A stretch of 11,280 nt of DNA from an uncultured bacterium (lineage in GTDB: Bacteria; Cyanobacteriota; Cyanobacteriia; Cyanobacteriales; Microcoleaceae). The stretch spans positions 1 through 11,280 of the forward strand of contig CAZUCT010000238.1 in NCBI GenBank assembly GCA_964619285.1, read 5' to 3'. Shown in pieces: positions 10,704 to 10,883 of the stretch. The notes below the pieces were generated by a model. It did no database searches, was not told the origin of the DNA, and saw only the letters and a list, made by a program, of their open reading frames with translations. The position numbers and the translations under genes are program-made. Each line of letters begins with the position of its first letter. Within the stretch, counting starts at the first letter, position 1.

Positions 10704-10883
10704 AATTGTTAATTGCTAATTGCTAATTGTTAATTGTTAGTTGCTAATTGTTAATTGCTAATTGTTAATTGTTAATTGTTAATTGCTAATTGTTAATTGC
10801 TAATTGTTAATTGTTAATTGCTAATTGTTAATTGTTAATTGCTAATTGTTAATTGCTAATTGTTAATTGCTAATTGTTAATTA
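10704..10883. repeat. Heptanucleotide tandem array (AATTGYT)n, about 25.7 copies; STRR-like short tandemly repeated repetitive sequence
   Basis: Unit AATTGTT / AATTGCT repeated head to tail from 10704 to 10878, with a partial unit to 10883. One variant, AGTTGCT, is at 10739. The array sits between the NDH-2-like stop (10877-10879, inside the last unit) and the kinase start (10672), 32 bp upstream of the kinase ATG. Confidence 0.9.

Follow-up and report, generated by a model that had tools for sequence, protein, structure and literature searches.

The locus described here raises the question of whether a tandem heptamer repeat lying between two cyanobacterial genes controls the gene that follows it or is merely tolerated where it stands. 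The window, by which the whole 11,280-nt stretch of DNA is meant, is the entire contig (CAZUCT010000238.1) of one NCBI metagenome-assembled genome (MAG). The repeat occupies positions 10704–10882, between the genes for an NDH-2-type NADH dehydrogenase and a Ser/Thr protein kinase with a WD40 propeller, and these and the other genes around it are all on the minus strand. An earlier note on this DNA, made from the letters alone, had proposed that the array is a length-variable, phase-variation-like control region of the kinase. Comparison with orthologous loci suggests another answer. The array is probably a simple repeat of the short tandem repeat (STRR) type that is resized by slippage, with a copy number that is evolutionarily labile and largely neutral, so that it would at most slightly tune the downstream gene.

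Composition of the array and its relation to classic heptamers

Analysis with Tandem Repeats Finder identified one strong array in the window, with a period of 7, 25.6 copies, 88% matches and the consensus AATTGTT. The array consists of 25 full AATTGYT units followed by a terminal partial unit, AATT (4 bases). A search with a pattern of two consecutive units gave 24 matches within the array and one stray match at 8071, compared with 0.05 matches expected from dinucleotide-preserving shuffles, and the approximately 25 copies described earlier are thereby confirmed. On the forward strand the units are AATTGTT, AATTGCT and AGTTGCT (15, 9 and 1 copies), the last of which, at 10739, is absent from the earlier description; on the gene strand they read AACAATT (15), AGCAATT (9) and AGCAACT (1), with the general form ARCAATT. 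The order of T and C at position 6 of the unit is TCCTTCTCTTTCTCTTCTTCTCTCT, exactly as it had been written down before. Adjacent units differ more often than expected by chance (lag-1 match 0.25; 99.87% of shuffles match at least as well), and lag-matching against shuffles gave no significant higher-order period at 14 or 21 bp in the order of the units. The proposed expansion by duplication of 14- and 21-bp blocks is thus borne out only in part: the alternation of neighbours fits multi-unit slippage loosely, but the periods expected of such blocks are not significant.

The array has a G+C content of 20%, compared with 43% for the window. Stop codons are present in all six frames, the longest open stretch being 6 codons, and this rules out a coding repeat. 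A replication origin, iterons and clustered regularly interspaced short palindromic repeats (CRISPR) are likewise ruled out, as the unit has a period of 7 and recurs in many ordinary intergenic regions, and no CRISPR-type spacers are present. For a 261-nt RNA that includes the array, the predicted folding energy is −21.9 kcal/mol (z-score +0.34), and 123 of 200 shuffled sequences fold as well or better, so the region is predicted to be unstructured as RNA. A terminator or attenuator was rejected on the same grounds and because no terminator-like site is found in 10300–11280. A strong internal promoter was also rejected, since a promoter scan gave only repeated matches of the form TTAACA-17-AACAAT, eight in number, that agree at 9/12 positions. 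The array is a STRR-like heptameric simple-sequence repeat, slippage-prone and of a known kind.

Cyanobacteria have been known since 1990 to contain heptameric tandem repeats, and these serve in the fingerprinting of strains. The units of the three named subfamilies, STRR1–3, are CCCCAGT, TTGGTCA and CAACAGT, and AACAATT and AGCAATT presumably belong to none of them. The earlier view that the unit is not one of these classic sequences is upheld, as the consensus AATTGTT/AACAATT differs from all three and a full-text literature search with four spellings of AACAATT/AGCAATT returned no earlier description, its only matches being incidental ones such as lac operator sequences. AACAATT/AGCAATT is a new unit within the known STRR class, outside the three named subfamilies.

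The likeness to STRRs that had been suggested is also upheld by a head-to-tail 7-nt unit, a non-coding sequence and a copy number that differs between orthologous loci and hence between strains. Heptanucleotide tandem repeats of this type were first described in Calothrix PCC 7601, as cited in PMC4692102, and heptamers are over-represented among the long simple repeats of many bacteria, as summarised in PMC4692102 and PMC4679880. Another STRR-like property, the presence of one unit at many loci of a genome, is seen in L125, the closest full relative (seven arrays in 18.5 kb), the 11.3 kb of the window holding a single array. The present case differs in that its unit is not a classic one and its host is nearest to Oscillatoriales rather than being a heterocystous strain. 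The closest named homologues of the kinase, with ~58–61% identity, are from Microcoleus, Kamptonema and Tychonema, and on this basis the organism appears to be closest to Oscillatoriales and not a heterocystous form.

Turnover of the array and distribution of its unit

The window was compared with orthologous loci of unnamed relatives whose kinases are 68–92% identical to that of the window. The gene string NDH-2, kinase and major-vault-protein homologue is kept in L125, L002 and L004; in L122 the NDH-2 gene adjoins the kinase gene and no vault gene is found there. The NDH-2–kinase spacer contains 25 units in the window, 11.6 units in L125 (kinase 92% identical; DNA 90.9% identical over 5.9 kb), 7.6 units in L002 (kinase 82%), and at least 4.6 and at least 4.3 units in L121 and L005 (kinase 80 and 91%), where in both cases the contig ends. 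In L004 (kinase 77%) there are ~4 degenerate units together with a ~300-nt insertion, in L120 (kinase 82%) AATTAAT-type units and a hairpin, and in L122 (kinase 68%) no array. The variability in length that had been anticipated is therefore found between strains. The order of unit variants seen in the window (AGAGAGAAGAAGAGAAAGAGAAGGA) bears no relation to that of L125 (AAAGGGAGGAA) despite their 90.9% identical flanks, and the unrelated order together with the differing lengths indicates that the length and pattern of the array turn over much faster than the flanking sequence. These loci provide a natural copy-number series (0, ~4, 7.6, 11.6 and 25) at one conserved string of genes, in which the native kinase leader is present or absent, and hence material for tests of expression tuning.

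The spacer between the kinase and vault-protein genes also varies. It has no array in the window, 7.9 units in L125 that fill the whole distance between the kinase TAA and the vault-protein ATG and include no Shine–Dalgarno sequence, ~9 units of a variant in L004, short arrays at the kinase stop in L005, L120 and L121, and 4 degenerate units in L002. In the relatives these arrays consist of the ARCAATT unit or its one-substitution variants and have been gained and lost. Six of the seven AACAATT arrays of L125 are in the sense orientation, and one array of 18.6 units there reaches the ATG of a gene and gives the first two bases of its start codon. Contigs of MAG82 contain several more AACAATT arrays together with the one-substitution variants AATAATT and AACAACT. 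ARCAATT is the dominant heptamer of this Oscillatoriales-like clade, and the locus thus adds to the known heptamers a new unit that is dominant in a clade closest to Oscillatoriales. Other heptamers were observed as well: in L123 (Oscillatoriaceae Prado104; kinase 60% identical, synteny lost) a (GTTGAGA)n array at 2700–2745 lies ~260 nt upstream of the orthologous kinase, and L125 also holds AGGTCAG and CTTTTGC arrays, so that each lineage seems to own a heptamer repertoire.

The array does adjoin the kinase start, as had been stated, but the gap to the ATG is 31 nt and not 32 nt. In six relatives (L002, 1583–1712; L005, 28–160; L004, 5883–6012; L120, L121 and L122) a conserved leader of ~130 nt occupies the position between array and kinase; its first element is a TATAAT or TAATAT box, TTGGGTGTCTTTCTGC comes next, and at its end AAAGAGGCTCAATTATAAAT precedes the ATG. 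The window and L125 alone lack ~105 nt of this leader and have a common 31-nt remnant, in which 31/31 positions are identical. By this alignment the short distance between array and ATG is the result of a lineage-specific deletion of ~105 nt shared only with L125, and is therefore not the usual arrangement. The remnant contains an inverted repeat, ACTTCTGCAAGAAGT (10685–10699), a −10-like TAGAAT (10680–10685) whose end is 7 nt before the ATG and a degenerate Shine–Dalgarno sequence, AAGAAG. Between the window and L125 the ratio of nonsynonymous to synonymous substitution rates (dN/dS) of the kinase is 0.18, indicating purifying selection and thus a kinase that is still expressed somehow. In the relatives, the 5′ end of the conserved leader, GGGUGUCUUUC, can pair with its Shine–Dalgarno region, AAAGAGGCUC, which suggests that the leader may form a Shine–Dalgarno-sequestering structure; covariation gives no support to this pairing because all of the pairs are invariant, and a search of the window and four related loci, conserved leader included, against Rfam gave no match.

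At its other end the array supplies the TAA stop of the NDH-2-like open reading frame (ORF), as had been noted, the codon being formed where the last full unit meets the partial AATT. L125 and L002 retain an ancestral TAA, 6 and 9 nt, respectively, ahead of the array. The window lacks 5 nt (TAATG) relative to these loci, and through this difference the ancestral stop is lost and the ORF ends two codons later, in the first array unit. For annotation this means that heptamer arrays can supply stop codons and adjoin start codons.

The distribution of the unit was surveyed in one genome per species, with a threshold of at least four units, in 8-kb blocks. This gave at least 114 blocks, and the counts below, like those of sense and antisense arrays given later, are among the matches listed. 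Approximately 50 blocks are cyanobacterial (Microcoleus, Kamptonema, Microseira, Symploca, Stigonema, Okeania, Nostoc and others), with 3–6 blocks each in some genomes (MAG82, UBA11372, Stigonema and others), and non-cyanobacterial blocks are from Bacteroidota, Acidobacteriota, candidate-phyla bacteria, a Beggiatoa relative and others. With ORFs called crudely on these blocks (at least 100 aa, first start codon), none of 141 arrays is inside an ORF of this size. The array of the window is the second longest of 139 counted. A stop-facing gene end is within 12 nt of the array in 54 of 130 cases. Arrays are found in 19 convergent and 6 divergent spacers, compared with 94 convergent and 93 divergent gene pairs in the background of the same blocks, although the divergent spacers, the poorer in arrays, are longer than the convergent ones.

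In a viral collection 34 stretches contain ARCAATT ×4, and four composition-matched permuted heptamers are found in 47, 39, 67 and 25 stretches. Since these permuted heptamers form arrays in viral contigs about as often as ARCAATT does, arrays of any A/T-rich heptamer would arise at similar rates; heptamer arrays are thus a generic product of slippage, and their occurrence across phyla needs no common origin. A special, horizontally spread heptamer was accordingly rejected as an explanation, an independent origin by slippage being sufficient, with a control that applies to viral contigs only. The specific feature is the amplification of ARCAATT within the clade. The viral contigs with ARCAATT ×4 (L126–L159, e.g. 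L131, L138 and L143) include several giant-virus MAGs, and in L131, a 15-kb contig, six ARCAATT matches are grouped at three sites.

Two groups of heptamers described previously resemble the arrays of this survey. The GGGAATC repeats of Xanthomonas and the GGGGAYT repeats of Nostoc PCC 7120 are intergenic and nearer to the upstream ORF than to the next start (means of 28 and 160 nt); these heptamers are commoner between convergent than divergent genes, and are kept between the same genes with very variable length and sequence (Rehm et al., 2015; PMC4692102). The present arrays share the proximity to the upstream ORF, the excess of convergent over divergent spacers and the fixed location with variable length, but the units of Rehm et al. 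are G-rich and quadruplex-capable, whereas ARCAATT has a G+C content of 14–29%, no G run and no predicted structure. TAACTGA direct repeats of Beggiatoaceae, Cyanobacteria and Bacteroidetes are often near start codons, and a translational role has been proposed for them (MacGregor, 2015; PMC4679880). They too are A/T-rich heptamers with stops in all forward frames, and ARCAATT is also found in Cyanobacteria, Bacteroidota and a Beggiatoa relative. The present unit, AACAATT/AGCAATT, differs from TAACTGA in being anchored at the upstream stop codon and in a cross-phylum spread that needs no horizontal transfer, as the permuted-heptamer control suggests.

Origin of the array and alternative explanations

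In the explanation favoured here, slipped-strand mispairing at replication would make and resize the array, with single units and multi-unit blocks being gained and lost, and this turnover of blocks would also account for the alternation of the unit variants. The array is located, as the sequence shows, in the spacer of the co-directional NDH-2 and kinase genes, starting at the NDH-2 stop codon. Its presence there is probably tolerated, since a sequence with no translatable frame among the six, no RNA structure and no terminator could grow and shrink without harm to either neighbour. Because every frame is closed, the array also acts as a back-stop, and comparison with the relatives indicates that its first unit took over the role of stop after the 5-nt deletion had removed the ancestral NDH-2 TAA. 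In this lineage the ~105-nt deletion removed the conserved kinase leader together with its −10-like box, so that the array now lies only 31 nt away from the ATG. As the leader is deleted and the kinase is under purifying selection, the kinase is most likely expressed by transcripts reading through from NDH-2, in which the A/U-rich array would form the leader between the cistrons, or alternatively from the weak TAGAAT box, which would give a nearly leaderless mRNA.

Several observations weigh against this explanation. The array is retained in the same spacer across lineages that are 77–92% identical, which could point to a function. The same could be said of the 31-nt segment, which is identical in two lineages with flanks differing by 9%, an event with a chance of ~0.05 as estimated from the 90.9% identity. 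In co-directional spacers ARCAATT is in the sense orientation in 47 and antisense in 19 unique spacers (p = 0.0008), and this bias, together with the six sense arrays out of seven in L125, could reflect a function, as could the L125 array that runs from stop codon to ATG without a Shine–Dalgarno sequence and the one that gives the first two bases of a start codon. Furthermore, the context statistics come from a rough survey of 128 spacers, and both read-through and leaderless expression of the kinase are guesses.

The control region proposed in the earlier note would act through changes in copy number that, in steps of 7 bp, alter the spacing of a promoter. However, the array repeats at a constant period and always ends at the same point on the kinase side. 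Whether units are added or removed, any −35/−10 pair downstream of the array keeps its sequence and spacing, and what is displaced, upstream of the array, is NDH-2 coding sequence alone. The six relatives with a ~130-nt leader have their own TATAAT/TAATAT box there, the 31 nt of the window being what a deletion has left, and the surveyed arrays adjoin the 3′ ends of genes and are found in few divergent spacers. Phase-variable repeats are located inside an ORF, between −35 and −10 boxes or in a 5′ untranslated region, where a change in unit number alters expression; the present array is not inside an ORF but could be part of a 5′ untranslated region or of an intercistronic RNA. Thus, phase variation is not supported, and on the favoured explanation the array is not an on/off switch of the kinase.

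A softened form of this model treats the array as a rheostat. An A/T-rich, TTAACA-rich tract above a core promoter would, through its length, alter UP-element-like contacts, DNA melting or transcription interference from NDH-2, and slippage would produce cells with varied kinase levels. Every AACAATT unit contains TTAACA, which is 5/6 of the −35 consensus, and the last units of L005 and L004 give, as read off the sequences, TTAACA or TTGACA 18 nt upstream of the conserved TAATAT box. Together with the eight promoter-like sites in the array and the labile copy number in the relatives, these features speak for a rheostat. However, the eight sites are weak, the conserved −10 box of the relatives is deleted in the window, no regulatory site is found in the NDH-2 coding sequence upstream of the array and slippage in a periodic array cannot shift the −35/−10 spacing. 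In addition, the arrays as a class go with gene 3′ ends and are seldom found in the promoter spacers of divergent genes, and the downstream gene encodes a cytoplasmic-type signalling kinase, which is not a typical contingency gene. A rheostat of this type therefore seems unlikely.

Heptamer tracts that affect expression are known from two systems. In Haemophilus influenzae the (ATCTTTC)n tracts of hmw1A/hmw2A, with 11–63 units, are in the 5′ untranslated region and are transcribed, and their copy number, changed by slippage, tunes expression; the repeats pair with a G-rich arm to form a long hairpin that is cut by RNase III (PMC12721329). The hmw1A tract is the only well understood heptamer rheostat. 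It resembles the present array in being a heptameric tract upstream of a coding sequence, but the latter has no complementary partner in the 31 nt before the ATG and no predicted hairpin. In Nostoc PCC 7120 contiguous heptamers upstream of recF (TTTTGAA) and recO (GACYAAT), in 3–8 copies, have a modest measured effect on reporter output, that of recO included (bioRxiv 10.1101/2022.06.06.494920). These arrays are within 30–100 nt of the start codon and some overlap its first two bases, as one L125 array does; they differ in their units and in having only 3–8 copies.

The array could alternatively act as RNA. Sense (AACAAUU)n would be an unstructured, A-rich intercistronic leader that provides a landing or standby site for the ribosome, through ribosomal protein S1 or a similar factor, and so permits Shine–Dalgarno-free translation; its length could tune the expression ratio of the neighbouring genes. 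The orientation bias of the arrays, both in the survey and in L125, and the predicted absence of structure are consistent with such a role, as are the kinase–vault spacer of L125, which consists of TAA, 7.9 units and ATG, and the other L125 array that runs into an ATG. The Shine–Dalgarno sequence is degenerate (AAGAAG) in the window and in L125, yet the kinase is under purifying selection, and similar ideas have been proposed for TAACTGA repeats (PMC4679880) and for the recF/recO heptamers (bioRxiv 10.1101/2022.06.06.494920). However, the orientation bias could equally arise from the direction of replication or from mutational strand asymmetry, most arrays adjoin stop codons and leave 100–160 nt of ordinary leader ahead of the next start, and permuted heptamers are equally common in viral contigs. 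A leader function is thus as doubtful as the rheostat. A fuller version, in which ARCAATT arrays are sense-transcribed, unstructured, A-rich intercistronic RNA spacers that replace Shine–Dalgarno leaders (that of the kinase here and of the vault gene in L125), with slippage in length tuning the relative output of the neighbours, is slightly more doubtful again. If it were true, cyanobacteria would have a counterpart of the Haemophilus hmw heptamer rheostat that works without a hairpin, and STRRs would gain a function after more than 30 years.

It is very unlikely that the array, or its length, arises from short-read mis-assembly. The window is a single MAG contig that ends 400 nt beyond the array, in non-homologous sequence, and in the Logan assembly of run SRR7048222 the sequence breaks off after four units. 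This 2,629-bp Logan contig, which also encodes the kinase protein, reproduces the 31-nt segment and 4 repeat units before it ends within the array, as is usual for short reads in a repeat. The kinase-proximal junction is thus repeated in an independent assembly, which indicates that the array and junction are real, and six other assemblies from other samples have the same unit or close variants in the same spacer. Because the unit variants follow each other without a period, long k-mers are unique and would let an assembler pass through the array. The uncertainty is confined to the exact count of 25, which rests on one assembly, as the window is the whole contig of the MAG. A scan of metagenome contigs for the strain-specific junction found no contigs of the same strain with other copy numbers, and a scan with the conserved leader of the relatives found nothing. 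As short-read assemblies break at heptamer arrays, copy numbers from MAGs are not to be trusted without spanning reads.

A role in DNA architecture, in which a 179-bp tract with AATT every 7 bp (three units corresponding to two helical turns) is bound by a nucleoid or heptamer-specific protein or acts as a melting sink for superhelical stress that insulates the genes, is likewise highly improbable: the 20% G+C content of the tract, the palindromic pattern TTAA-N3-TTAA read off the unit and a heptamer-binding factor postulated in Nostoc (bioRxiv 10.1101/2022.06.06.494920) would fit it, but neither a candidate protein nor a known operator motif matches, the number of copies and the order of units vary between loci, and the arrays decay or vanish in relatives while the genes persist.

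Flanking genes and other features of the window

The features of the locus are listed in the table.

Features of the NDH-2–kinase region of the window, with the basis of each assignment
Feature	Position	Strand	Basis
Heptamer array, 25 units and AATT	10704–10882	−	Tandem Repeats Finder, pattern search, unit counts, G+C, frame analysis
Segment between array and kinase ATG, 31 nt	10673–10703	−	Sequence, alignment of relatives, L125, RNA fold
Ser/Thr protein kinase with C-terminal WD40 propeller, 839 aa, downstream of array	8153–10672 (ATG at 10672)	−	ORF list, Pfam (Pkinase, WD40), homologues, dN/dS
NDH-2-type NADH dehydrogenase, C-terminal coding part	10880–11227	−	Pfam NDH2_C (PF22366), blastn end points, L002 protein
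TAA stop of the NDH-2-like ORF, inside the array	10877–10879	−	Translation; L002 and L125 sequences

The glycine-rich loop of the kinase (window 10600–10650, residues 8–24) has the sequence ESAEFGRTY rather than the usual GxGxxG. This form is shared by L125 and by L002, for which the start of the gene was compared, and the VAIK lysine and the HRD and DFG motifs are present.

At the NDH-2 end of the window, homology stops at 11227, and the last 53 nt (11228–11280) cannot be aligned to the NDH-2 gene of any relative. This terminal segment puts two stop codons in the NDH-2 frame and contains an imperfect hairpin, CCCCGCAC...GTGACGGGG. Two readings fit: an interruption of the NDH-2 gene in this organism, or a chimeric end of the contig.

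Directly downstream of the kinase gene, on the minus strand at 5348–8071, is a homologue of the eukaryotic major vault protein (MVP) with Vault repeats and the MVP shoulder domain; the true start of this gene is probably the ATG at 8056. Its pairing with the kinase is kept in L002, L004 and L125. Between the kinase stop and the vault-protein start is a near-perfect palindrome, AGAAACCCGGTTTTTT/AAAAAACCGGGTTTCT (8097–8134), inside which the Logan contig of the same sample ends. Similar copies are found in the Oscillatoriales loci L093, L096, L004, L065 and L002, so that the palindrome resembles a small dispersed element or a terminator hairpin common to these loci. Long-range pairing of the array with AATTGTTAATTATT (8071–8084, upstream of the vault-protein gene) was considered and rejected, as it would involve merely 12 weak base pairs over a distance of 2.6 kb and is absent in relatives.

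Four consecutive genes for pentapeptide-repeat proteins of 454, 191, 141 and 157 aa lie on the minus strand at 668–3573. They explain the 15- and 30-nt periodicities reported by Tandem Repeats Finder between 876 and 1763, and those at 177–269 fall outside the genes.

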